46,641 bases of DNA from Candidatus Hodarchaeota archaeon (GTDB lineage: Archaea; Asgardarchaeota; Heimdallarchaeia; Hodarchaeales; Hodarchaeaceae): NCBI GenBank assembly GCA_016839785.1, contig JAEOTQ010000045.1:1-46641 (forward strand), given 5' to 3'. The notes under the pieces are model-generated. The model had not been told where the DNA came from. It ran no database searches and saw only the letters and a list, made by a program, of their open reading frames with translations. Of this stretch, positions 217-38,765 are shown in pieces (position 1 is the stretch's first letter; each line of letters begins with the position of its first letter). The position numbers and the translations under genes are program-made.

Positions 217-1503
217 ATGAATAATTATAAGCAGCTTTTATTCTTAACTACATCCTTATTGATTATTGTTGTCCTTTCTTTGTTAACAGGTTCGCCATCT
301 TTATCTGGACTGGCATTACCCATTTTATGTTATATTTTCTTCTTTTTTCTTACTAAAGAAGTGAATATCGATGGAATCCAAGTAACTCGAGTTATATCAG
401 CTGATCGAGGAACGGTTGGAGATGAAATTGAAGTTAAACTGGTAATCCGAAATCTTGGATCAGCTATTCCTCTTCTTGAAATCGTTGATTTATCAGATGA
501 GAGGTGTACAATATCATCTGGGAGTAATCATTTGCAAGTGCAAATTGCTGAAAATCAGATTATCGAAAGAAAGTATACGCTTAAACTCCATCATCGAGGA
601 AGGTACGCACTCGGTCCATTATTCTTGAAGGGAAGTGATCTTTTCGATAAAAAATCCACCTATAGAAAGATAGAATCTGTTCGGATAATTACTTGTGTTC
701 CTGATTTCATAAAACTTCAGACTTTACCAATATCTCGTGATAAGCTCTTACCAGTAGGTGGATCCATCCCCTCACGAATCTACAAGGGGAGAGATTTTGA
801 TTTCCAAGGAGTACGTCCTTACCAACCAAATGACGAACTCCGTTCAATAAACTGGCGAGTATCAGCTAAGTTCAATTCTCTTGCTACAAATGAGTACGCA
901 TTAAATCAACAGTCTCATATCATAATAATACTAGACCATACCTCCTCAACAGAACATTTACTAGAGGTTTCAATTAAGGCTACTCTATCTATTGCTGAAT
1001 GGGCAATTAGGCAACGTTCCAAGGTCGAACTTCTTGCAATTGGGGATTATGTACGACATATTAAACCTTCTGCAAATAAACGTCAATTATTGCTGATAAC
1101 GGAACGTTTAGTAGATCTTGAAGCAATTTCTCCACAATTTGAAAATATACTAGAGCCTCAAATTGAAAACAGGGTATTCCCTAGATTAACTCAACCAGGT
1201 ATCCTCTTCATAATTTCACCCCTAGTTAACCACACAATAAGTACCGCAACTAAAAAGATAATAGAATCAAGAAAGCAAGTGATATGGGTTAATCCAAGTT
1301 TAGATTATATATATGAAGAAATAGATCCTTCAAAATTGCAAAGAAAAGTATCAAAAGATATGGTTGAGACTTTCACAAACGTATTGACTACTCTCATAAA
1401 AATTAATACACAATACGAGTTTGAAAAAGTACCTAGATTCAATTGGTATCCCCAAGGTCCGGATTATAGTTCATTAAGCTCGTTAAATAAACTGGGTGCG
1501 TAA
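217..1503 (+). CDS. DUF58 domain protein (MoxR/vWA-associated) with N-terminal TM hairpin
   Basis: RGRYALGP, then GRDFDFQGVRPYQPNDELRSINWRVSAK and IILDHTSS match DUF58 motifs. GAGGA RBS-like sequence upstream. Confidence 0.88.
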   Translation: MNNYKQLLFLTTSLLIIVVLSLLTGSPSLSGLALPILCYIFFFFLTKEVNIDGIQVTRVISADRGTVGDEIEVKLVIRNLGSAIPLLEIVDLSDERCTISSGSNHLQVQIAENQIIERKYTLKLHHRGRYALGPLFLKGSDLFDKKSTYRKIESVRIITCVPDFIKLQTLPISRDKLLPVGGSIPSRIYKGRDFDFQGVRPYQPNDELRSINWRVSAKFNSLATNEYALNQQSHIIIILDHTSSTEHLLEVSIKATLSIAEWAIRQRSKVELLAIGDYVRHIKPSANKRQLLLITERLVDLEAISPQFENILEPQIENRVFPRLTQPGILFIISPLVNHTISTATKKIIESRKQVIWVNPSLDYIYEEIDPSKLQRKVSKDMVETFTNVLTTLIKINTQYEFEKVPRFNWYPQGPDYSSLSSLNKLGA

Positions 1504-26663: not shown

Positions 26664-27047
26664 ATGCCCTACCGTCAACCTTTACAAAAACTCCTTGATG
26701 AAGAAAAAATTCTTGGAGTAGTGATTTTTGACCCTTCGGGCAATGATTGGTGGCATACTGGATCATTTCCACAAGCAAATGACAGACTTTTAGATGGATA
26801 CTATTTAATTCATGAATGGGTTACTTACCCTTCATCTGCTATAATTGCAGGAGTAAAATACCTCACATTACTTAATGCATATCCAGATTACTGGTTGTTA
26901 ACAAATATGCAAGGCCAGGGATCCTTAATCCTCCAAAAAGCTCCAAATGAGTTTTATTTTTTTTGCTATCTGGATGAGTCCATTAATCCACCCGACATCC
27001 AGAAAGAAGTAAAAAAGATTGCTGATCTCTTCGCTCAAGGCGTTTAA
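26664..27047 (+). CDS. Asgard-type profilin (alternative TTG start at 26625)
   Basis: ILGVVIFDPSG, PSSAIIAGVKY, LLTNMQGQGSLIL and FFCY...PPDIQKEVKKIADLF follow the Lokiarchaeal profilin pattern (GIAII, SIQGIKY, TNITGKGHVL). About 127 aa. Confidence 0.82.
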   Translation: MPYRQPLQKLLDEEKILGVVIFDPSGNDWWHTGSFPQANDRLLDGYYLIHEWVTYPSSAIIAGVKYLTLLNAYPDYWLLTNMQGQGSLILQKAPNEFYFFCYLDESINPPDIQKEVKKIADLFAQGV

Positions 27048-27057
27048 GGGATTAACT

Positions 27058-28467
27058 ATGTCATCAGGAAAAGATTATTCTAGTTTAAGCCATATATTTC
27101 GAGCATACGATGTACGTGGTGTTTATAACAAGGAAATTACCGCTGCAGTACATTATCGGATTGGTCTGGCATTTGGAACTTTCTTACAAACAAATCAAGG
27201 ATTTAAATCGGGAGAGGATTTTATCTTTACAGCTTATGATGTTCGGCTGACAAGTTCACTATTGGCTCAAGCGTTTGCTGCAGGAGTTATGACTACTGGA
27301 ATAAATATTGAGTATTCTGGAGAACCTCTACAGTTTGGAGCTTGTATGTTTACTGCTTGGAAGCAAAATGCATTTGCTACAGCATTTGTAACAGCTTCGC
27401 ACCTTCCTCCTGAATGGAATGGCGTGAAATTTTACTATGGTAATGGAGTGGGGTTTTCTGAAGAAGATAATATGAAAATTCGTGACATTTTTATTGAAGG
27501 TGATTTTCTACAACCACCATGGACAAACGTAGGGCAGATGACTCGTTTAAACCTCAAAAATGAATATCGTGAGTATTTAAGCGAAAAGTTCACATTAAAA
27601 AGGCCCTTAAAAGTCATTGTTGATTGTGGAAACGGTTCTTCATGTTTATCAGCCCCAGAAGTTTTAAAGGCCATCGGTCTAGAGGTAGTACCTTTATACT
27701 GCAGTGTAGATCCAACATTCCCTAATAGGTCTTCTGAACCCAATGAAGAAACGCTAACTGAGTTATCAAAACTTGTCATCAAAGAAGAAGCTGATTTCGG
27801 GGTGGGTTTTGACGGCGATGGTGATCGTGCCGTTATTTGCGATAATACTGGACGTGTCTTACTCGCTGATATTACTGGACTTATTCTCGCAAAATACATG
27901 CGTACTGTTTTTCCAGACAAAACACGAATCTTAGCCAATGTTGAATGTTCGCTTGCACTAGAAAAATCTCTCGCAAAACCAGCAGTTATTGATCGAATCA
28001 AAGTCGGCCATACTTTCCTCACTGCGGATGCACAAGAAAAAACTGATACATTATTAGGAATTGAAAGCTCTGGGCATATGGTTTTTCCGCATATTTACCT
28101 ATTTGATGATGCAATGATTATTCCAATGATAATGGCGGAATTGTTATCAGCTCAAAATGTTAAACTCTCTGAATTAGTAGACCAATTACCAACATTATAC
28201 AAACGTCGAGTAGCTGTCCCTGCACCAGATAAAGTTAAATTTAAAGCAATATCAAGCTTATTAAAAGACATTAAATCGTCATACAAGGATGTTACAGATA
28301 TTGATGGGATAGGAATTTCCTTTGGTCTTGAATCCTGGGTATTAATTCGTGCAAGTAATACTGGACCGAAGATTCGTATCACTGTAGAAGCTGAATCAGC
28401 AAAGAAAGCAGATGAATTACAAGTTCAATTCCAGCAATTACTAGAAGAAAAACTGAAGAAAATTTGA
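27058..28467 (+). CDS. Phosphomannomutase/phosphoglucomutase
   Basis: IFRAYDVRG, TASHLPPEWNG (phosphoserine), FDGDGDR, GIESSGH, IRASNTGP. Confidence 0.92.
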   Translation: MSSGKDYSSLSHIFRAYDVRGVYNKEITAAVHYRIGLAFGTFLQTNQGFKSGEDFIFTAYDVRLTSSLLAQAFAAGVMTTGINIEYSGEPLQFGACMFTAWKQNAFATAFVTASHLPPEWNGVKFYYGNGVGFSEEDNMKIRDIFIEGDFLQPPWTNVGQMTRLNLKNEYREYLSEKFTLKRPLKVIVDCGNGSSCLSAPEVLKAIGLEVVPLYCSVDPTFPNRSSEPNEETLTELSKLVIKEEADFGVGFDGDGDRAVICDNTGRVLLADITGLILAKYMRTVFPDKTRILANVECSLALEKSLAKPAVIDRIKVGHTFLTADAQEKTDTLLGIESSGHMVFPHIYLFDDAMIIPMIMAELLSAQNVKLSELVDQLPTLYKRRVAVPAPDKVKFKAISSLLKDIKSSYKDVTDIDGIGISFGLESWVLIRASNTGPKIRITVEAESAKKADELQVQFQQLLEEKLKKI

Positions 28468-28491
28468 TAGCATTAGAATAATGTGGTTAAA

Positions 28492-29190
28492 ATGACAGAA
28501 AGAATTGGTTTGATCGGTGGCACGGGCCCATTGGGACAAGGATTAGCTTTACGCTGGGGATTAGCGGGAGAATCTGTTATTATGGGATCAAGACTGCAGG
28601 AAAAAGCAGATAAAATATCTCTTGAGATCAATACGAAATTGGGTAGAAAATTAATCTTACCACTAACAAACGAGAATTGCATACAAGAATCAGATATAAT
28701 ACTCATCTCTACTCCATTTAAGTTCATGATAGAAACTTTGGAACCCTTAATTCCTCATTTAACGGAAGAAAAAATTCTCGTAGATGTAACTGTTCCTCTG
28801 AAACCATTTGAAAAGGGAAAAATGGTTGAAACTCTACCTCCCTCAGACTTGAATGCACAAAGTGCAACTGAACTCTTACGAAAAGTCATACCACCTAAAA
28901 TTCCAGTAGTAGGCGCATTCAAGACCCTTTCAAATTCTACATTACGTGATATAGATAGAATCCCAACCTTAGAACAAGATGTATTTATCTTTGGTAAAGA
29001 TAAAGTAGCTAAGAATAGAGTAAAAGAAAAAGCTCAAAAAATTAGAAATCTTCGTCCAGTCGATGCTGGAGGAACTCTATCTGCTAGACATGTAGAAAGA
29101 TTTACAGCTTTTCTTATTGGTCTTAACCGTAGATATAAAACGCATGATTCAGGAATAAAAGTATCTGGATTGCCTCATCGAGAATGGTAA
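28492..29190 (+). CDS. npdG: NADPH-dependent F420 reductase (F420H2:NADP+ oxidoreductase)
   Basis: IGGTGPLGQGLALRW, GSR, VDVTVPL, VVGAFKTLS, RPVDAGG, TAFLIGLNRRY. Confidence 0.85.
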   Translation: MTERIGLIGGTGPLGQGLALRWGLAGESVIMGSRLQEKADKISLEINTKLGRKLILPLTNENCIQESDIILISTPFKFMIETLEPLIPHLTEEKILVDVTVPLKPFEKGKMVETLPPSDLNAQSATELLRKVIPPKIPVVGAFKTLSNSTLRDIDRIPTLEQDVFIFGKDKVAKNRVKEKAQKIRNLRPVDAGGTLSARHVERFTAFLIGLNRRYKTHDSGIKVSGLPHREW

Positions 29191-29194
29191 GCCA

Positions 29195-30817
29195 TTAGAT
29201 AATTAGTTTAAAACTTTTTATTAGTTGTTTCTGTATTTTAGAAATTCTATAATGATTTAAGACGACTTCTTCCAGTTGGCTCAGGATAACCCCTTTCTTT
29301 GACTCCAGACCTATCGTCATTTTCTCGATTAATCCTTCTTCTTTTAGCGAGAATGGTAATTTGATGGGTAGCTGTTTTAAATAACTTATAGGAATTTTGG
29401 GAAAAATCGTTTTAACCGTCAAAAATTTATGATTCAGATAAAATGTCAGTAAAGAAGAGTTCAGTATGATTTCTAAATGTTTTAAGTTTATTTGAGACCA
29501 TTGTGATTTGAGGGTAATTATATACACATCGCAGACACAGAATAAGTTATTTGGATCATACGCTACAACTAACTCGTGACCAATCCTTCGGACCAGTAAT
29601 TTAGGTTTCGTATACATTGATTTATTTTTGTAAATCGATTTTTGGGTTGAATCAAATTCGATATATCGTTTTTCTCCTAGTATAACAAACTTCTGAATAT
29701 TTCTACCTGCTATTAACGGTACAGACTCCTTTGTAATAGGTACCTTACTTGTAAATTTCGAATTGAAACCTAATTCGATTCCACGTGAAATATAAGCAAT
29801 ATCCCCAAGTTTCAACGCGTTTTTTTCAATTGTTCCAATGATATCAGTAATTTTTGAGGCCATATTTGGCATTATATACTTGAACTTCTGATCCATGATA
29901 TTTACTTGCTCATTCTTCTTAATCTGTGTAAATCCTTCCCCAACTGAAAACTTACTGAATTCTATGATATTAGTATCGTTCTTTTCATCCTTAGATTTCT
30001 TATATCCTACTACAATACAGGTTTCCACAGATACGGATGGAAATATTTTGCTACCCAGCATAATAATTTTTTTCAGATTAAGCGTTTTAAGCAGAAATTC
30101 ACGAAATTTCTGATAGCGAAAGTTTGTAGTAAAATTATTCGGAATAAGGAATATCAAAACTCCTCCTTCCCTTAGTAGGTACACAGAGCGCTCAACAAAA
30201 AGAAGGTAACTTTCTATTTCTGGATCAACGCCTTTGTATAATTTCTTGTATATATTTTTCTCCTCAGAAGAGAACGAAATGCCAAAAGGAGGATTTCCTA
30301 TACATAAATCATATCCATCAGTAGCATTGGGAATTGGCCATTCATAAAACCAATGAAATGCAGTGTCTTGTAATTTAACAGTTGGATACTTAATGTTACT
30401 ATCTTCAAAAAACGAGATATTCAATTTCTCTTTTGTAGGATTACCTTCCTTAGTTTCATTAGCTTTGATATATCCAATTAAGGCATTTCCGGCTTTAAAC
30501 GAAATATCAATTTCAGAATTTGATGAGAATTTTTCCTTAATCAATTCACATTTTCTGATAGACTCATAATTTATATCTAAGCCATGTAAAATTAGGTGAC
30601 TATTTATTTGATCGCTTTTTTGGAGTTTTTTCTCGTGGTCTACAATTTCAAATAAAAACCTTCCGTCTCCAACCGAATTGTCAAGTATCCTAATACTACG
30701 AACATTAATTACTTCGCTTAGATAGTTTCTAATTAGTCCGAAAGCTATGTCAACCATTAATTTCACAATAGGAAGTGGTGTAGGGATTGCTCCTAATGGT
30801 TCTCTTCCTTTTTTCAA
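29195..30817 (-). CDS. Gamma-class amino (N6-A/N4-C) DNA methyltransferase, Eco57I/TaqI-like, with C-terminal TRD
   Basis: GAIPTP (motif X variant), ILDNSVGDGRF (motif I), FHWFYEWP...IGNPPFG (motif IV), ISRGIE, PKLLVRRIG...ILNSSLL. Confidence 0.85.
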   Translation of the reverse strand: MKKGREPLGAIPTPLPIVKLMVDIAFGLIRNYLSEVINVRSIRILDNSVGDGRFLFEIVDHEKKLQKSDQINSHLILHGLDINYESIRKCELIKEKFSSNSEIDISFKAGNALIGYIKANETKEGNPTKEKLNISFFEDSNIKYPTVKLQDTAFHWFYEWPIPNATDGYDLCIGNPPFGISFSSEEKNIYKKLYKGVDPEIESYLLFVERSVYLLREGGVLIFLIPNNFTTNFRYQKFREFLLKTLNLKKIIMLGSKIFPSVSVETCIVVGYKKSKDEKNDTNIIEFSKFSVGEGFTQIKKNEQVNIMDQKFKYIMPNMASKITDIIGTIEKNALKLGDIAYISRGIELGFNSKFTSKVPITKESVPLIAGRNIQKFVILGEKRYIEFDSTQKSIYKNKSMYTKPKLLVRRIGHELVVAYDPNNLFCVCDVYIITLKSQWSQINLKHLEIILNSSLLTFYLNHKFLTVKTIFPKIPISYLKQLPIKLPFSLKEEGLIEKMTIGLESKKGVILSQLEEVVLNHYRISKIQKQLIKSFKLII

Positions 30818-30822
30818 TTTCC

Positions 30823-32589
30823 TTACACCCCCTGTACAATTAATTGTGTTTCATCTTGTGATAAACCATATATTTTGAATACAATTTCGTCAATAATGAT
30901 TCTAAATCCTTCCATCTTTGAGTATTTATCGAAAATTTCTTCGATAGAAGCTTTGTTAAAATTTGTACCAAATTTTTTAGTTAACCATAACGAATCACTC
31001 ATATTCTTAGTTCGAAAAAATCTATCGAGCTGTTTCATGGATTTAAACATATTTTTGCCTGACTTTTGGAGAATATTTGATTCAATAATCATTCCCTCAA
31101 GTAATTCTCGAAGCTTACTCCCTTCCTCAAGATATGATTTGAAAATCTCCCCAATCGTAAAGAATTGGTCAAGCTTTGACTCTTTGGAAAGTAATTCTGT
31201 CAAAGTCTGAACTTCCCACCTTTTTATAAGTGTTTTAATCTTTCTACGAAAGTCAGGATTTGAATCACCAGTTAAACAAGGGATAATTACTTTGTTTAAA
31301 TAAGGTTTATCCAAATCTTTACTGGTTACAAATTGTTTAGTATATACTGCATGTTGTAACCACCAAATTAACAGTTTAGATTGAAATAACGCGGCATATG
31401 CATAAATTTCATTGGACGAGGAAGAAGGAGGTATAATATTAATGACAGTTTCATGGGTGATGTGGTTTCCCAACGAGTCCACCCAAATTGGAAGATTTAA
31501 TTGGAATTTTGGTTTGGTTTTATAGGAGATTATTCGTTGAGTAATGATTTTAGGTTGTAAGAATCTTTTCAGCTGAAGTTCAGGGACATCATTGCTGACA
31601 TAATTACGCTCTGGTAGTAAAAATCCGTGTGTAAACGTTACTTTTTCAATTAAGGGAATAGAGGATTCACTTGTGCGGTAACGACTATTTAAACCACGAA
31701 ACGCAATCCATTCAACACGTCTATGATCTTTTAGAAGCTTTTCCATTAATTCCTGTTCGGAAGGAGATACCCCAACAAGAAAATTATCAAAAATCACCGC
31801 ATTCCGAGTCTTTATCACTGAGATCGAAGTGAATCTTTCTTTTATTGGATCCCAAATTCCAGATTTATACTGTTCAGATGGATCCTTTTTCTGTAAAATT
31901 ACGACAATATGTTCTTGTAATTGGCCTGAAAATTGATTGGCTAAATCAAATACCTCTAAAAGCCGAACTTGTGTGAAACATATCTTTCGAAACAGTTTCC
32001 ATTTATTAGAATAAATGAAAGGTTTGGGTAGTATAAAAGAAAGGATGCCTCCATCTTTTAAGAGATTTACTGATTTTATAACAAAATAAAGAGCCGATTC
32101 TGAAGGAACATTCTCTTGGATGGTCAAATGATAGAGTTTCCGAATTTTATCCCATTCTTGAGGAGAATATTTCGCATTATGTGGAGGATTAGATATGATC
32201 AAGTCATATTTTTTTTCAACGGTCTCTGTATATGATTCTGTAAGATAATTTTTATGGTGAAATGTAACAGAACATCCCTCACTCTTGATTGCATCATTAA
32301 CTAATAATTTAGCCTTGGATAGTGCTGAAGAGTCAATATCAAGTGCATCAATGCTGATTAAACCAATTTTTTCACTCAATACCTGAATAAGTTTTTCACA
32401 AAAAATACCTTCTCCAACTGATGGATCTAACACCAATAGAGGGTTATCATTCCTTGATTCAGGAAGATGAGTGACAACGTTTTCGATTATTGCCTGTACA
32501 ACATTATCTGGAGTGAAATATTGTCCTTTTTCACGTTGAGTAATTGCCACAAGCATTTCCCAAAAATTACTTTGTTGTCGTGCTTCCAC
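30823..32589 (-). CDS. TaqI/Eco57I-like amino-methyltransferase with atypical NPPH catalytic motif
   Basis: KGQYFTP, VLDPSVGEGIF, IISNPPHN, LKDGGILSFILP, PKIITQRI. Overlaps the CCA gene (alternative ATG at 32556). Confidence 0.85.
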   Translation of the reverse strand: MEARQQSNFWEMLVAITQREKGQYFTPDNVVQAIIENVVTHLPESRNDNPLLVLDPSVGEGIFCEKLIQVLSEKIGLISIDALDIDSSALSKAKLLVNDAIKSEGCSVTFHHKNYLTESYTETVEKKYDLIISNPPHNAKYSPQEWDKIRKLYHLTIQENVPSESALYFVIKSVNLLKDGGILSFILPKPFIYSNKWKLFRKICFTQVRLLEVFDLANQFSGQLQEHIVVILQKKDPSEQYKSGIWDPIKERFTSISVIKTRNAVIFDNFLVGVSPSEQELMEKLLKDHRRVEWIAFRGLNSRYRTSESSIPLIEKVTFTHGFLLPERNYVSNDVPELQLKRFLQPKIITQRIISYKTKPKFQLNLPIWVDSLGNHITHETVINIIPPSSSSNEIYAYAALFQSKLLIWWLQHAVYTKQFVTSKDLDKPYLNKVIIPCLTGDSNPDFRRKIKTLIKRWEVQTLTELLSKESKLDQFFTIGEIFKSYLEEGSKLRELLEGMIIESNILQKSGKNMFKSMKQLDRFFRTKNMSDSLWLTKKFGTNFNKASIEEIFDKYSKMEGFRIIIDEIVFKIYGLSQDETQLIVQGV

Positions 32590-34540
32590 CTAATATTTCC
32601 CTAATTTTCTTTGCAGTGAAAGTCTTTCCTGTAAGTACATTACCGCTCATTATGACAAGACGATGATTATTTTTAGTCATCATTGACGCTATATCATTCA
32701 ACATTTGTTCGTAATTGTTTGATCTTGTGGATAGCTCTATAACTTGACTTCCTCGAGGAATTTGCAGTGAATTTGAATAAGAATCCAGTAAGGTTTCATA
32801 ACGGTTATAGATTGTAATATCTGCATCGCTTTTTGATAGAGATCGTTCCTCTAAATTTCTAGCATTGATATTTAGTTTAACATCGTCTTTAGATGCAAAA
32901 GTGTGCAAGAATATTGGATTGAAATACTTAAAGTTCTTGTATAACTTCTGTCGATGGAATGGATGTGAGGGTGAATTGAAATTTGTACCATCGAATATAA
33001 CCATAGTGGATTTATTACGCCGAAGAATACATGATACAACCCATATTGCTAATTGATATGTATGCGCACTCTCCCAGGACGAATAATCTGGAAAATTCTT
33101 TCGGTATAATTTTCGAACATGATCTGTTGATATAATACTAATTTTAGGAATTTTAAACGAAGTACATAAACTTATGACCTTCATAATTTGATCGAGTATA
33201 TCATACAATCCTTTCTTGGAATTATTTAATGGATCTACCTCCACTTGCTCTCTTAACAATTCCAAACAAATACCAATAAGCTCCCGTTGTGCAGTTTTTG
33301 TTTTATCAATATTTAAATGAGTTACGACTTCATTTCCATCAACTTTTAGGTCTTTAAGGTAGATCGGTCTCTGAGATATACTCCTTATTCGAACATCATG
33401 TACCAATGCTTCATTAGGTGATGTTGGGACTCCCAGAATTCTCCCCTTTGCTTGGTGAAATATTAGGTAATCTTCAAGAAATTTTGGTTGTATGTTGTAA
33501 AGTAACCGTCTTGTTGAATAATTTTTGTACTCGTCATCATCTTCTTCGAGAGAATACGGTAACGGTATCTTATGAATTGCTAATAGATGGATAATATCTT
33601 CGATCCGTTTATTTGGGAATTTAAGTTTTTTTAGAATTCGGGATAGGAGATTCTTATCTAAATCTGGGAGAAGAATTGATGTATCGTCAGTTAAAATAGA
33701 TAGCTGATGGAATAGCGCAGAGTATCGGAGATTTACCGATGATTCGGAACTTAGATCATTTATAATCTGTAAAGTAATGTCTAGACGAGTTAAATTCAAT
33801 GATGGGAGCGGTGTGTGTAATGATTCATGTTCATACTCTGGAATTATATGTTTAAGGAGATCAGTCGAAACTAAAAAATGTACAGCTTCCAGCCAGTGGT
33901 GACCACTCATTAACTTTTGAAATTCAGCCTCGATACGTTCCTTTGCCACCTGATCAAAAACATCTAAGTGTCTAGGAACTGCTGCAAGGGAAGATTTTTC
34001 TACAGAATATCCTAATTGTGAGACAAATCTGAAGATTCTAATTAATCGAAGTCCGTCTTCCCCTAACCTGGCATCAGGATCCCCCACTAAACGTAAAATA
34101 TGATTATTTAGATCAGAACGTCCATCGTAAGGATCTGTAAATTTTTCTGATATAGGATCATATGCAATCGCATTAATTGTCAGATCACGTCGAGCAAGAT
34201 CTTCCTCAATATCAGCTACAAATTGAACTTCAGAAGGATGACGTCCATCCTTATATTCTCCTTCGACCCGAAAAGTGGTAATCTCTATTGAAAGATTTTT
34301 AAAGAGAAGAGTAACAGTTCCATGTTGTATACCCGTTGGAATTACCCTGAATTGACTAAATAAATCCATAACTTCAGACGGAGAGGCGTCAGTTGCAATA
34401 TCCCAATCATGAGGTCGTGTTTCACCTCGCAGAAGATCACGAATTGACCCACCAACGACAAAAGCCTTGAACCCCGAAGAAGAAAATATGCGACAAATCT
34501 CAAGAACTTCCGTAGGAAATTGATTTGCGGTTAATTCCAT
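32567..34540 (-). CDS. cca: Class II CCA-adding tRNA nucleotidyltransferase fused to a C-terminal P-loop kinase-like domain
   Basis: VGGSIRD, DWD, TTFRVEGEYKDGRHP loop, DLARRDLTINA, EDGLR template motif, ERIxxE; about 190 extra aa with STDHVRK, IFDGTN, SDAD and GNVLTGKT. Confidence 0.88.
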   Translation of the reverse strand: MELTANQFPTEVLEICRIFSSSGFKAFVVGGSIRDLLRGETRPHDWDIATDASPSEVMDLFSQFRVIPTGIQHGTVTLLFKNLSIEITTFRVEGEYKDGRHPSEVQFVADIEEDLARRDLTINAIAYDPISEKFTDPYDGRSDLNNHILRLVGDPDARLGEDGLRLIRIFRFVSQLGYSVEKSSLAAVPRHLDVFDQVAKERIEAEFQKLMSGHHWLEAVHFLVSTDLLKHIIPEYEHESLHTPLPSLNLTRLDITLQIINDLSSESSVNLRYSALFHQLSILTDDTSILLPDLDKNLLSRILKKLKFPNKRIEDIIHLLAIHKIPLPYSLEEDDDEYKNYSTRRLLYNIQPKFLEDYLIFHQAKGRILGVPTSPNEALVHDVRIRSISQRPIYLKDLKVDGNEVVTHLNIDKTKTAQRELIGICLELLREQVEVDPLNNSKKGLYDILDQIMKVISLCTSFKIPKISIISTDHVRKLYRKNFPDYSSWESAHTYQLAIWVVSCILRRNKSTMVIFDGTNFNSPSHPFHRQKLYKNFKYFNPIFLHTFASKDDVKLNINARNLEERSLSKSDADITIYNRYETLLDSYSNSLQIPRGSQVIELSTRSNNYEQMLNDIASMMTKNNHRLVIMSGNVLTGKTFTAKKIREILGGSTTTK

Positions 34541-34634: not shown

Positions 34635-37256
34635 TTGCAACAGCTATCTCAAAAACTAAAAGACCTTTATGTATCTCTTCTCCAAGGTGGAGAATACTTG
34701 GGATGGTCAGATACTTTCCTCTTTGAGGTAGCTCTTAATTCTCTAATCAAATTTCTTTCTTTATTTTATTACCAACCTTGGAACAAAATCACAGAAGAAT
34801 CATTTTCCCATCTTGGAAAATCGGAAAGATGTAAAAGATTTTTAAAAATATGGTTTCAGCAAACTAAAGGGTCTAATGATAGAAATCTAGTTCAGTTAGT
34901 TGCGAGAACTTGTTTTTATTTGTCTGATCTTACTACTTACGAGGAACAGTTGCTAAAAAGTGTCCCAGAAACAGATTGGGACCAAATGATCAACTTTTTG
35001 GGAAAATATCAATTCACTTTAGTCGAAACATTCCAGAAATCAGAGGGGGAAAACGATGGAATAACCCCAGAATTTCTCTCTATCTTTGCAGAAATGGTTA
35101 TTACTGAATATGAAAAAGATTTTTCAGTTTCACCCAAGGTTTCAAGTCGCAAGACAAAAGGGGTCTACTATTCACCATGGAGAATAATCCGAGAGTTAAC
35201 AAATAATCTAATAACAGAAAATAAAGTTCAGGTGACGGTGTTAGATCCAAGTTCTGGAACTGGTTCATTTCTACTTTACGCTGCAGAAAGGATTTTTCAA
35301 AATCAATCGAAAATTTCAAGTAAACGTGTTAAAGACCCCTCACTGATTGTCAGAAATTATATTTATGGGGTAGATAAATCTGGTCCAGGTATATTGGTAA
35401 CTAAGCTACGGTTGCTATTCTGGATGTTAACCAAAGATCCTGAATCAGAAATTGAAATCGATCAAGAGTCTTTTTCGAATATCCGGAACGGAAACTCACT
35501 TTTTGGGTTTGTTAATGAGAAATTCAGTCCATCGATTGAACTTCAGAGTTATTTTTCTCACAGGGCAGAAGAAAGGGAGTTAGAATATTCAGAAATTGAC
35601 AAATTGACTAAAGAATTATATAAGGATTGGGTAAATTCATGTACTCAACTAAAATCTGTTTTACAGAGTAAAAACTCTATAAATGGAACAAATAGTGAAA
35701 CCCTAATAGAAAAAGTGAATCTAGAGCTTTCAAAACTACTTGATATATCATACATACAATTTCTGTCTAGTTTAAGAACAAATACGACTATCGTCAATTC
35801 TAGTATCAATATTAACTTGACACAACACAATTTCTTCCACTGGGGACTCGTTTTCCCTGAGATTATCATTCATGGGGGCTTTGATATATGTTTAGGAAAT
35901 CCTCCGTATGGACGCTCTGTTCTGTCAGTAATAGAAAAAAATATACTTAAACTATCCTACGGGTCGTGCAAAGGATCTAATGCAAAAAAAGTAAGTTTGA
36001 ATGCTGCAGGAGCTTTTATTGAACGATCAATTAAGCTTTTAAAGCCAGATGGACGCCTAGCCCTTATTCTTCCATTTTCTGTTCTGAGAGTGGAAGAATT
36101 TGAAGGAATTCGTGATTATATTCTAGAAAAGACGGTAATTAACGAAATTCATGACGAATCTGCAGCTTTCCAAGATGTCACACTAGAAATGTGTTCATTG
36201 ATCTTAACAAAACATCAGAAAAGTGATCACTCGATATTTATTAAACCCAGAGAAGGTTTGGGATCTGGATCACATATAAAAAAATCAGTTTTTGTGAAAT
36301 ACAAGCGATTTATGATATACCATGATGCATATTGGCAGAAAATTGTTAATACAGGAGAATTCTCACAAGTCATGGGAGATTATGGAATAGATCATAGAAT
36401 TGTCAAGAAAGATCTAAGCAAGAAATACTCCCCATCCAATGATTATATTGTTCCTTTTCTTCATTCAGGAAAATGTGTAACCCGTTATGCTCTGAATCCC
36501 CGTTTTTTTCACTGGTCAAGACTAAATCATCCGAATAAAAGATTTAGAAAGTATCTGGAGGATCCTAAACTTATTTGTACTGCGATTGGCAACGAATTTC
36601 GTATTGCATACAAACCCAAAGGCATAATTCCTGGGACAAATGTTTCAATAATGGAAATTATTAATCCTCAACATGATTTCTTTCCCCTAATGATTATACT
36701 TAATTCGTCATTGATAAATTACTTGTTAAAACGTTATATATTGAATTATTCTCATCTCACGGTCTATTTACACAAGTATTACACACAATTAGTGCCGATA
36801 AAGTATCCATGGGAATATGAAAATGAATGGAAAACAATTGGAAGATATATTTCGTTTTTAACACAATTTTCTGTATTGAAAAATGATTTATCCTACCAAG
36901 ATGAGTTAACCTTTTTAAAAAGAATTACAGAACACCTTGTTTATCAATTGTATCTTCCAGAAGTATTTAAAGAGTCAAATCTGAATTTAGCTGAATTAAT
37001 AAAGGATTTTCTGTTGGATATTCAGATTGAGAATAGCATTGAGGTATTACTCTCCCCCATTAATAATATTAAGGAGATTATAAAGAAAGAAAATTCTAGT
37101 GTTATGAAAACTGAAGCAACAATAAATACAGTTATTAAATCACTAAATACCAAACAATTTCTCAGTTTCCTTCACCAATCCGAAAAAATCCGAGAAAAAT
37201 CTAGTTTAACACAAAAAATACTTCTTGATACTACTCCAAAAATGATTCGAACCTGA
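34635..37256 (+). CDS. Large Eco57I-like amino-DNA methyltransferase with TRD
   Basis: RKTKGVYYSP, VLDPSSGTGSFL, IYGVD, IRNGNSL, FFHWGLVFPEI..GGFDICLGNPPY, ILNSSL. Confidence 0.87.
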   Translation: MQQLSQKLKDLYVSLLQGGEYLGWSDTFLFEVALNSLIKFLSLFYYQPWNKITEESFSHLGKSERCKRFLKIWFQQTKGSNDRNLVQLVARTCFYLSDLTTYEEQLLKSVPETDWDQMINFLGKYQFTLVETFQKSEGENDGITPEFLSIFAEMVITEYEKDFSVSPKVSSRKTKGVYYSPWRIIRELTNNLITENKVQVTVLDPSSGTGSFLLYAAERIFQNQSKISSKRVKDPSLIVRNYIYGVDKSGPGILVTKLRLLFWMLTKDPESEIEIDQESFSNIRNGNSLFGFVNEKFSPSIELQSYFSHRAEERELEYSEIDKLTKELYKDWVNSCTQLKSVLQSKNSINGTNSETLIEKVNLELSKLLDISYIQFLSSLRTNTTIVNSSININLTQHNFFHWGLVFPEIIIHGGFDICLGNPPYGRSVLSVIEKNILKLSYGSCKGSNAKKVSLNAAGAFIERSIKLLKPDGRLALILPFSVLRVEEFEGIRDYILEKTVINEIHDESAAFQDVTLEMCSLILTKHQKSDHSIFIKPREGLGSGSHIKKSVFVKYKRFMIYHDAYWQKIVNTGEFSQVMGDYGIDHRIVKKDLSKKYSPSNDYIVPFLHSGKCVTRYALNPRFFHWSRLNHPNKRFRKYLEDPKLICTAIGNEFRIAYKPKGIIPGTNVSIMEIINPQHDFFPLMIILNSSLINYLLKRYILNYSHLTVYLHKYYTQLVPIKYPWEYENEWKTIGRYISFLTQFSVLKNDLSYQDELTFLKRITEHLVYQLYLPEVFKESNLNLAELIKDFLLDIQIENSIEVLLSPINNIKEIIKKENSSVMKTEATINTVIKSLNTKQFLSFLHQSEKIREKSSLTQKILLDTTPKMIRT

Positions 37257-37784: not shown

Positions 37785-38765
37785 ATGAGTCAACAAATCA
37801 TCGAAGCATATCAAAGAATTAAGGATCATATCAATAAAACTCCAGTAATGACATCTCGCACACTTAATAAACTCGTATCAGCCCAAATTTACGTAAAATG
37901 TGAAAATTTTCAGCGAATAGGTGCCTTTAAAGCTCGAGGAGCCTTTAATGCTATTCAACTACTCATTGACGATTCTAATCCAGCTGGTGTTATAACACAT
38001 TCTTCAGGTAATCATGCACAAGCAGTTGCCTTAGCTTCACATGAATTAGGGATACAAGCTTTAATAGTAATGCCTGAAAACGCTCCAGTTGTCAAGAAAG
38101 AAGCGACAAAAGAATACGGCGCAACTATCATTGAATGTGGGAATCAACCAGGTGATCGAGTAGCAAAGACCGAAGAAATCGTACAAAAATATGGATATCC
38201 TCTGATTCATCCCTATAATGATTACAAAATTATTCATGGAGCTGGAACCGCTGCTTATGAACTACTCACAGAAGTAGGAAAACTTGATTATGTCTTAGCA
38301 CCTGTAGGGGGTGGAGGATTACTTAGTGGAACTTCTTTATGTGTAAAATCACTATACCCAGAATCTATTGTACTTGGAGTAGAACCGTTGAATGCTAATG
38401 ATGCTTACCTATCATTCATGGATGGAGGAAAAATATTTCCATCTGTAAATCCGAATACGATCGCTGATGGTCTACGCACGAGCTTGGGAGATATAACATT
38501 TAAGACTATCAAAGAAAATGTGAACGATATTATCACAGTATCAGAACTAGAGATTTTATCTTCTATGAAGTTTCTTTGGGAAAGAATGAAAGTGGTTGTT
38601 GAACCATCTGGAGCAGTTCCACTTGCAGGATTATTTAAACTCGCAAATGAAAAGTCAAATTATTCCATTAAAGATAAGAAAATTGGTTTGATTATTTCGG
38701 GTGGGAATATTGATCTAACTGATTTCTTTGAGATTCTGACACAAAAATTAGGTAAAAAGGTTTAA
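37785..38765 (+). CDS. PLP-dependent threonine/serine dehydratase (serine racemase-like, no ACT domain)
   Basis: KCENFQRIGAFKARG, SSGNHAQ, PVGGGGLLSG, TIADG, EPSGA, SGGN. Confidence 0.9.
   Translation: MSQQIIEAYQRIKDHINKTPVMTSRTLNKLVSAQIYVKCENFQRIGAFKARGAFNAIQLLIDDSNPAGVITHSSGNHAQAVALASHELGIQALIVMPENAPVVKKEATKEYGATIIECGNQPGDRVAKTEEIVQKYGYPLIHPYNDYKIIHGAGTAAYELLTEVGKLDYVLAPVGGGGLLSGTSLCVKSLYPESIVLGVEPLNANDAYLSFMDGGKIFPSVNPNTIADGLRTSLGDITFKTIKENVNDIITVSELEILSSMKFLWERMKVVVEPSGAVPLAGLFKLANEKSNYSIKDKKIGLIISGGNIDLTDFFEILTQKLGKKV

Follow-up and report, generated by a model that had tools for sequence, protein, structure and literature searches.

We report a predicted class II CCA-adding enzyme from the Hodarchaeales, a group of Asgard archaea, whose C-terminal extension is very probably a circularly permuted P-loop kinase of the AAA_33/PNK/PSTK/Kti12 group, as judged from sequence comparison and from a structure model. 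The gene lies in a 46,641-nucleotide stretch of DNA from a Candidatus Hodarchaeota archaeon (assembly GCA_016839785.1, contig JAEOTQ010000045.1, positions 1 to 46,641 of the forward strand), hereafter called the window. Behind a transfer RNA (tRNA) nucleotidyltransferase of familiar design, the encoded protein carries an additional domain in which the strand, Walker A motif and helix that normally open a P-loop kinase stand at the very end of the chain (Table 1).

The reordering becomes apparent when the domain is set beside canonical kinases of the AAA_33 family (PF13671). Thirteen of these proteins, each of ~180-190 residues and encoded in the window's own genome or its relatives, were used for comparison; they are the best 14 matches less one, L032, which is cut by a contig end. 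Their Walker A motif lies at residues ~8-15 and is followed by STDxxRR, DGTF, RxxxR and SDAD. In the C-terminal domain the Walker A motif, preceded by the hydrophobic strand LVIMS, comes after all of the other elements. An hhalign comparison with an 18-sequence alignment of the domain as query matched domain columns 10-126 to kinase positions 37-156 (probability 94.4, E value 9.2e-8, 30% identity, 109 columns) and domain columns 168-190 to kinase positions 8-30 (probability 86.8, E value 4.2e-6), the two matches running in swapped order relative to the canonical kinases. STDHxRK is paired with STDxxRR, FDGTN with VDGTF, NxxxR with RxxxR, and SDAD with SDAD or SDAN. As a control, the two slices of the domain were run separately with 100 column shuffles each; the front scored 53.4 against 14.1 +/- 3.0 for its shuffles (maximum 31.2) and the tail 40.8 against 10.2 +/- 2.0 (maximum 18.0), none of the 100 shuffles reaching the real score in either case. 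By this comparison, each piece of the domain is homologous to its counterpart in canonical kinases, with the order of the two exchanged.

Searches with single members of the family gave the same picture at lower scores. The first ~125 residues of the domain align with AAA_33 profile positions 24-141, and its tail aligns with positions 8-44 of the profiles for 6PF2K, Zeta_toxin or nSTAND3. For example, AAA_33 positions 26-137 align with domain residues 8-122 of homologue L008 at 26.1 bits, while in L016 AAA_33 positions 24-123 align with residues 6-106 and Zeta_toxin positions 11-40 with residues 161-190. In the window protein itself, 6PF2K positions 8-37 match the P-loop, at residues 171-200 of a 207-residue C-terminal piece (E value 0.022). 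Matches to AAA_33 were seen for 5 of 34 members at E values up to 5; the window protein had no AAA_33 row in the Pfam search. For its residues ~462-657, neither Pfam nor NCBIfam gave a family above threshold. A profile search of PDB sequences returned the kinase PFKFB3 in two weak pieces (E value 0.034), its residues 5-44 aligning with profile positions 152-191 and its residues 95-140 with positions 43-90. Fluorescent proteins and Rab27, which the C-terminal piece also matched among PDB sequences at E values of about 0.1-1, were set aside as chance matches. The nearest clusters by feature in the ESM Atlas are AAA_33, Zeta_toxin and KTI12, with scores of 0.93-0.94 that serve as a lead only.

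Conservation of the individual motifs was examined among 33 proteins found with the C-terminal 207 residues as query. Thirty-one are 599-685 residues long and share the CCA domains and overall architecture; the other two are cut at the N-terminus. In the resulting alignment of 34 sequences (mean column identity 55%), every sequence contains exactly one GxxxxGK[ST], placed 12-23 residues before the C-terminus. G633, N634, V635, L636, G638 and K639 are found in all 34, and at position 640 there are 28 sequences with T and 6 with S. D473, R476 and K477 are each present in all 33 sequences that cover the column, D517 in 33 of 34, and T519, N520, N557, R561, S571 and A573 in all 34, the first lid position always being Asn. 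The putative catalytic set, comprising Lys639, Thr/Ser640, Asp473, Arg476, Asp517 and Arg561, is thereby invariant or nearly so. The 18-sequence alignment adds further domain-specific invariants, W489, E490, H493, T494, Y495, H526 and R530, which suggest a defined acceptor site or pocket. A single GxxxxGK[ST] is not rare by itself, occurring in 3 of the 48 open frames of at least 100 residues in the window; despite this background the C-terminal motif can be taken as real because it is conserved in the homologues. All 17 related genomic loci, from public metagenome-assembled genomes (MAGs), end at a true stop codon (TAG, TAA or TGA) just past the helix that follows the P-loop, which excludes a frameshift or truncation artefact as well as a truncated second domain. 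Conservation of this kind indicates that the C-terminal Walker A is under selection.

These results bear out the initial annotation of this DNA, which had proposed a permuted kinase of the AAA_33/PNK/PSTK/Kti12 type. Each of the motifs it had listed, with a Walker A near the C-terminus, was located in the translation in the order and at the coordinates given; its suggestion that the first lid Arg is replaced agrees with the invariant N557 and R561, which align with the canonical RxxxR; and GxxxxGK[TS], whose absence from homologues it had named beforehand as a possible refutation, is kept throughout the family. The permutation itself is supported by the swapped hhalign matches with their shuffle controls, the partial Pfam matches, the invariant motif and the starting points of structural alignments.

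Those structural alignments were made with an AlphaFold model of the domain alone, built with the 34 aligned sequences. The model is compact and confident by its own measures, with a predicted local distance difference test score (pLDDT) of 85.9 and a predicted template modelling score (pTM) of 0.83. It contains five strand-helix units, the last formed by a strand at residues 628-632, the P-loop and a helix at residues 639-651. Block values of pLDDT are 94-96 over domain residues 141-170 and 89-94 over residues 171-190. By title, 42 of the best 50 Foldseek rows for the domain are kinases or kinase-like nucleoside triphosphatases (NTPases). In these alignments model residues ~4-165 are matched to a stretch of the target that begins at its residue ~24-32, and the last 30 model residues are left unpaired; the target thus enters past its strand 1, Walker A and helix 1 (the Walker A of PSTK was judged to lie before residue ~20).

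Residues 1 to ~455 form a predicted class II CCA-adding enzyme, a reading on which sequence and model agree. Pfam PolyA_pol (PF01743) spans residues 26-150 (123.8 bits against a cut-off of 23) and PolyA_pol_RNAbd (PF12627) residues 177-237 (37.3 bits against 22), and the best NCBIfam family, NF009814 (CCA tRNA nucleotidyltransferase), covers residues 13-449 at 258.1 bits, under its equivalog cut-off of 290. The catalytic motifs A-E of class II enzymes read GGxxRD...DxD, RRD, EDxxR and ERxxxE; the translation has GGSIRD at residues 30-35, DWD at 45-47, RRD at 117-119, EDGLR at 161-165 and ERIEAE at 201-206, and these motif residues are invariant among the homologues. An AlphaFold model of the whole protein (pLDDT 88.7, pTM 0.82) has 1miv_A as its top Foldseek match (E value 2.1e-20, template modelling score 0.78 on the target), and ranks 1-44 are all CCA-, CC- or A-adding enzymes, entries for tRNA-processing enzymes or an entry titled 'bacterial protein'.

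Table 1. Coordinates in the window of the CCA-kinase gene and of the features of its predicted product.
Feature	Residues	Window position	Strand	Remarks
Whole gene: 657-residue class II CCA-adding enzyme (predicted) with C-terminal permuted kinase-type domain (putative)		32567..34540	-	Stop codon included; from open reading frame list and translation
CCA-adding enzyme body (predicted): head, neck, body, tail	1 to ~455	33176..34540	-	Pfam, NCBIfam, Foldseek
Circularly permuted P-loop kinase-type domain (putative)	462-657 (~196 residues)	32570..33157	-	
ISIISTDHVRK: strand equivalent to canonical beta-2, then STDHxRK	467-477	33110..33142	-	Candidate catalytic Asp473 and substrate-phosphate Arg476; model strand 467-471
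FDGTN: end of beta-3-equivalent strand	516-520	32981..32995	-	Walker-B-like Asp517; model strand 513-517
NINAR: lid motif NxxxR	557-561	32858..32872	-	Asn557 and Arg561; replaces canonical RxxxR
SDAD	571-574	32819..32830	-	Common to canonical AAA_33 paralogues of the same genomes
VIEL	600-603		-	
Relocated beta-1, Walker A and alpha-1 unit (putative), RLVIMSGNVLTGKT	627-653	32582..32662	-	Model strand 628-632, helix 639-653
Walker A GNVLTGKT	633-640	32621..32644	-	17 residues before the stop

Taken together, the best explanation would be as follows. The chain of the domain starts at the equivalent of strand 2 (STDHxRK) and continues with strand 3 (FDGTN), then strand 4, the lid (NxxxR, SDAD), strand 5 and a last helix at residues 610-623. 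A four-residue linker, NNHR, would join this helix to the equivalents of strand 1, the Walker A and helix 1, which close the protein. The relocated unit would fill the central slot of the sheet and so form one normal ATP site, and the domain would act as an ATP-dependent phosphotransferase. Canonical kinases end their chain with strand 5 and a helix. Here the canonical last helix is joined directly to strand 1, which fits an origin by tandem duplication of a canonical kinase, the first copy having lost its first unit and the second copy everything after helix 1. A plausible parent, an AAA_33 kinase bearing SDAD, is still encoded in the same genomes. The acceptor, the most speculative step, may be a hydroxyl of the tRNA that is bound to the CCA body: a 5'-OH RNA end, as for polynucleotide kinases, or else, as for PSTK, a group at the acceptor end. 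In that case the protein would link the addition of CCA to another step, in tRNA end-processing or quality control.

Confidence differs among the parts of this proposal. ATP binding and acceptor activation in T4 Pnk and PSTK depend on the Walker A Lys and its adjoining Ser/Thr, on Asp-x-x-Arg, on the strand-3 Asp and on the second lid Arg. Because the residues expected to bind ATP and activate the acceptor are conserved here, together with the invariant domain-specific residues, we lean towards an active ATP-using enzyme over a relic. That its substrate is RNA or tRNA is a tentative best guess, made because the nearest folds all act on RNA or tRNA and because the domain is fused to a tRNA-binding enzyme. 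More doubtful is a specific form of the proposal, a two-headed machine for the maintenance of tRNA ends, in which the nucleotidyltransferase would rebuild the 3' CCA and the permuted kinase would phosphorylate a hydroxyl on the same tRNA. The target could be either a 5'-OH end or, at the acceptor end, a 2'/3' or aminoacyl group, the phosphate either healing the tRNA or marking it for decay, and the protein would work with a short CCA paralogue described below, possibly also with the conserved methyltransferases that flank the gene.

Several observations weigh against the proposal as a whole. No member of the family passes the Pfam AAA_33 cut-off, the best score being 26.1 bits against 27, which may reflect the inability of a linear profile to score both halves of a permuted domain. 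The window protein alone yields a P-loop match only (E values 0.017-0.022), and the first lid Arg is Asn in every member. Foldseek with the domain returned nothing at E values up to 0.001, an outcome expected for a permuted fold because the aligner is sequential, yet one that still counts as a miss. The order of the sheet, expected to be 2-3-1-4-5, and the position of the P-loop beside Asp473 and Asp517 are inferred. The kinase is attached to the end of the CCA tail, which lies far from the catalytic head in class II enzymes of known structure. As regards the substrate, the window's own genome encodes RtcB, a ligase that joins 5'-OH ends directly, and tRNA splicing and repair in this organism would need no 5' kinase because RtcB is present. 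With these points taken into account, we regard the proposal of a permuted kinase domain on a long CCA paralogue as likely overall, its parts differing in the degrees given above.

Of the alternative explanations, one accepts the permuted P-loop kinase fold and assigns it a role other than phosphotransfer: the domain would be an ATPase that depends on tRNA, or a sensor of nucleotides, and would gate or time either the addition of CCA or the release of the tRNA. Such a role has been suggested for Kti12, and we consider it unlikely for the present domain. In polynucleotide kinases and PSTK the Asp-x-x-Arg pair supplies the general base and the clamp for the substrate phosphate; its retention in every sequence that covers it is hard to explain for a pure sensor, and the seven domain-specific invariants listed above again suggest an acceptor site. 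Quite improbable, in our estimation, is a domain-swapped dimer in which the strand, Walker A and helix unit inserts into a second molecule, so that only the dimer would have an ATP site. A strand-loop-helix at the end of a chain, tethered by a linker as short as NNHR, is of the kind that can swap, and dimers occur in crystals of some class II CCA enzymes; against this, the AlphaFold single chain is compact, with high block pLDDT across the tail and the pTM given above. The notion that there is no permutation at all, only a chance or unrelated GxxxxGK[ST] in some ordinary alpha/beta domain, or what truncation or a frameshift has left of a second kinase copy, might draw on the background frequency of the motif and on the absence of a significant Foldseek match, and is highly improbable given the position of the motif in all homologues, the true stops at all 17 loci, and a tail and front that match the canonical Walker A unit and the remainder of the kinase, respectively.

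The fusion has a narrow distribution. In a set of 83 genomes from the class, the domain had strong matches (E values up to 1e-87) in 17 of the 22 genomes of the window's Hodarchaeales-type genus-level group and in none of the 61 others; the weak matches elsewhere in the class are canonical kinases of 170-208 residues that cover only domain positions ~6-166. The homologues come from MAGs labelled Heimdallarchaeota, Hodarchaeota/Hodarchaeales, Hermodarchaeota, Promethearchaeota and Thorarchaeota. A phmmer search of 1.84 billion representatives returned 9 proteins, 7 of them the same fusion or fragments of it, and no complete stand-alone permuted domain was seen among the 9. The two weakest matches, the repeat proteins P0042 and P0043, were discounted as spurious.

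Each of the 17 genomes that carry the long form encodes a short PolyA_pol paralogue as well, in frames of 373-414 residues apart from one cut at 209 residues by a contig end. In the window's own genome the short paralogue has 385 residues (contig C100, L002 1405..2562, plus strand), lacks the kinase domain and the ER of motif E, and is 32% identical to the long form over head and neck; it sits between open reading frames (ORFs) of 243 and 269 residues. The long and short forms may constitute a split or specialised pair for CC and A addition. The archaeal class I CCA enzyme (TIGR03671) had no match in this genome, which is 84.5% complete. Also without a match in the same incomplete assembly were the CLP1_P kinase and the PF09414 RNA ligase. 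A healing-and-sealing pathway was considered in this connection; with RtcB present and these two families unmatched, a role as its 5' kinase is neither supported nor excluded. The RtcB matches are divided between two contigs, C169:3109-3975 (plus strand; profile positions 1-284, a 344-residue frame) and C135:49341-49904 (minus strand; profile positions 245-426, a 189-residue frame), which might reflect a split gene, an intein or a break in the assembly.

Comparison with known systems places the canonical AAA_33 family as the most plausible source of the permuted domain. The canonical kinases of the same and related genomes share with it STDxxR[RK], hhhDGT, a lid ending in R, SDAD and the Walker A unit; they differ in their normal order with Walker A at residues 8-15, in standing alone and in having the full RxxxR lid. 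The canonical kinase of the window's own genome has 181 residues (contig C206, L031 1498..2043, plus strand) with STDEIRR and SDAR motifs. Directly after it lies an ORF of 317 residues (L031 2045..2998, plus strand) that has no NCBIfam match, a pairing which we take to resemble the predicted kinase plus phosphotransferase-like gene pairs of bacteria.

Among proteins of determined structure, the O-phosphoseryl-tRNA(Sec) kinase PSTK (PDB 3a4l) and Kti12 (PDB 6qp0) differ in that Walker A comes first, and only their residues ~32 onward superpose on the domain, at 13-15% identity; moreover, they bind tRNA through a dedicated domain at the C-terminus and not through a CCA-adding enzyme. The 5'-OH polynucleotide kinases compared, namely T4 Pnk (1ly1/1ltq), Clostridium thermocellum Pnkp (4gp6), Pnkp1 (4xrp) and the fungal Trl1 kinase (9r3w, 6u03), have normal topology and an intact RxxxR and are fused to a phosphatase or ligase, not to a nucleotidyltransferase. 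The bacterial multifunctional CCA addition/repair protein with an HD domain (NF008137) is alike in combining a class II enzyme with a second activity at tRNA ends, the HD domain of the E. coli enzyme having phosphoesterase activities. The window protein scores 77 bits against this family's cut-off of 451, and its extra module is a C-terminal kinase-type domain, not an HD phosphohydrolase.

The gene is surrounded in the window by three paralogous methyltransferase genes of the Eco57I/N6_Mtase/TaqI_C type, at 34635..37256 (plus strand), 30823..32589 (minus strand) and 29195..30817 (minus strand). A divergent methyltransferase gene of ~860 residues lies upstream in 17 of 18 loci and one of ~580 residues directly downstream in 15 of 18, the three loci without it being cut off by the edge of a contig; 6 of 18 loci have a third such gene. 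Read in its longest frame, from GTG at 32589, the downstream gene shares 23 nucleotides with the end of the CCA gene. In a check for defence systems, PADLOC matched the methyltransferases to generic type II/IIG enzymes only and assigned no family to the CCA-kinase protein, and no restriction nuclease was identified around the methyltransferase genes. We regard this arrangement as an unexplained conserved context and not as evidence for function. Beyond the methyltransferases the genes vary between sub-groups. In the window these outer genes include a PALP-family enzyme (37785..38765, plus strand), syntenic in 10 of 18 loci, as well as an F420_oxidored-type reductase (28483..29190, plus strand) and a phosphoglucomutase/phosphomannomutase (27019..28467, plus strand), each syntenic in 7 of 18.

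Textbook examples of natural circular permutation in P-loop NTPases come from the GTPases, in which the motif order becomes G4-G5-G1-G2-G3. Such permuted GTPases are a precedent for natural permutation in P-loop NTPases (PMC1262696). These GTPases, the YlqF/YawG/RsgA/Lsg1 group, differ from the present domain in belonging to the TRAFAC class, in having another cut point and in being unrelated to kinases or CCA enzymes. The literature searched yielded no account of a permuted P-loop kinase or of a fusion between a CCA enzyme and a kinase; in the accessible parts of PMC7824862 and PMC10853773, 'circularly permuted' and 'circular permutation' refer to methylases. According to the portion available of a preprint by Cassidy et al. 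(2026; 10.64898/2026.05.29.728689), Hodarchaeales have class 2 enzymes only, some with A and B paralogues, and one Hodarchaeum class 2 enzyme, which may be either paralogue, carries out full CCA addition in vitro; recombinant protein was made in an E. coli delta-cca expression system. The CCA enzymes of the Hodarchaeales are presented there as bacterial-type replacements of the archaeal enzyme, and the lineage is discussed as close kin of the eukaryotes. The paralogues in the window's own genome, and the failure to detect a class I enzyme, agree with this portion of the preprint. The legend of its Figure 1 gives five motifs; the words kinase, P-loop and Walker occur 0 times in the text, and C-terminal regions were trimmed before analysis.

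What is known here is the fold and its chemistry, and what is new is the topology and the fusion partner. If the two-headed machine proposed above is correct, the domain would be the first natural circular permutation in the kinase branch of the P-loop proteins. For protein evolution, it would be a clear natural case of permutation by duplication and trimming, since the likely unpermuted parent is still encoded in the same genomes. For tRNA biology, the domain hints at a second step in the care of tRNA: as a conserved domain of ~196 residues with an intact predicted ATP site, it suggests that the long paralogue probably does more than add CCA.

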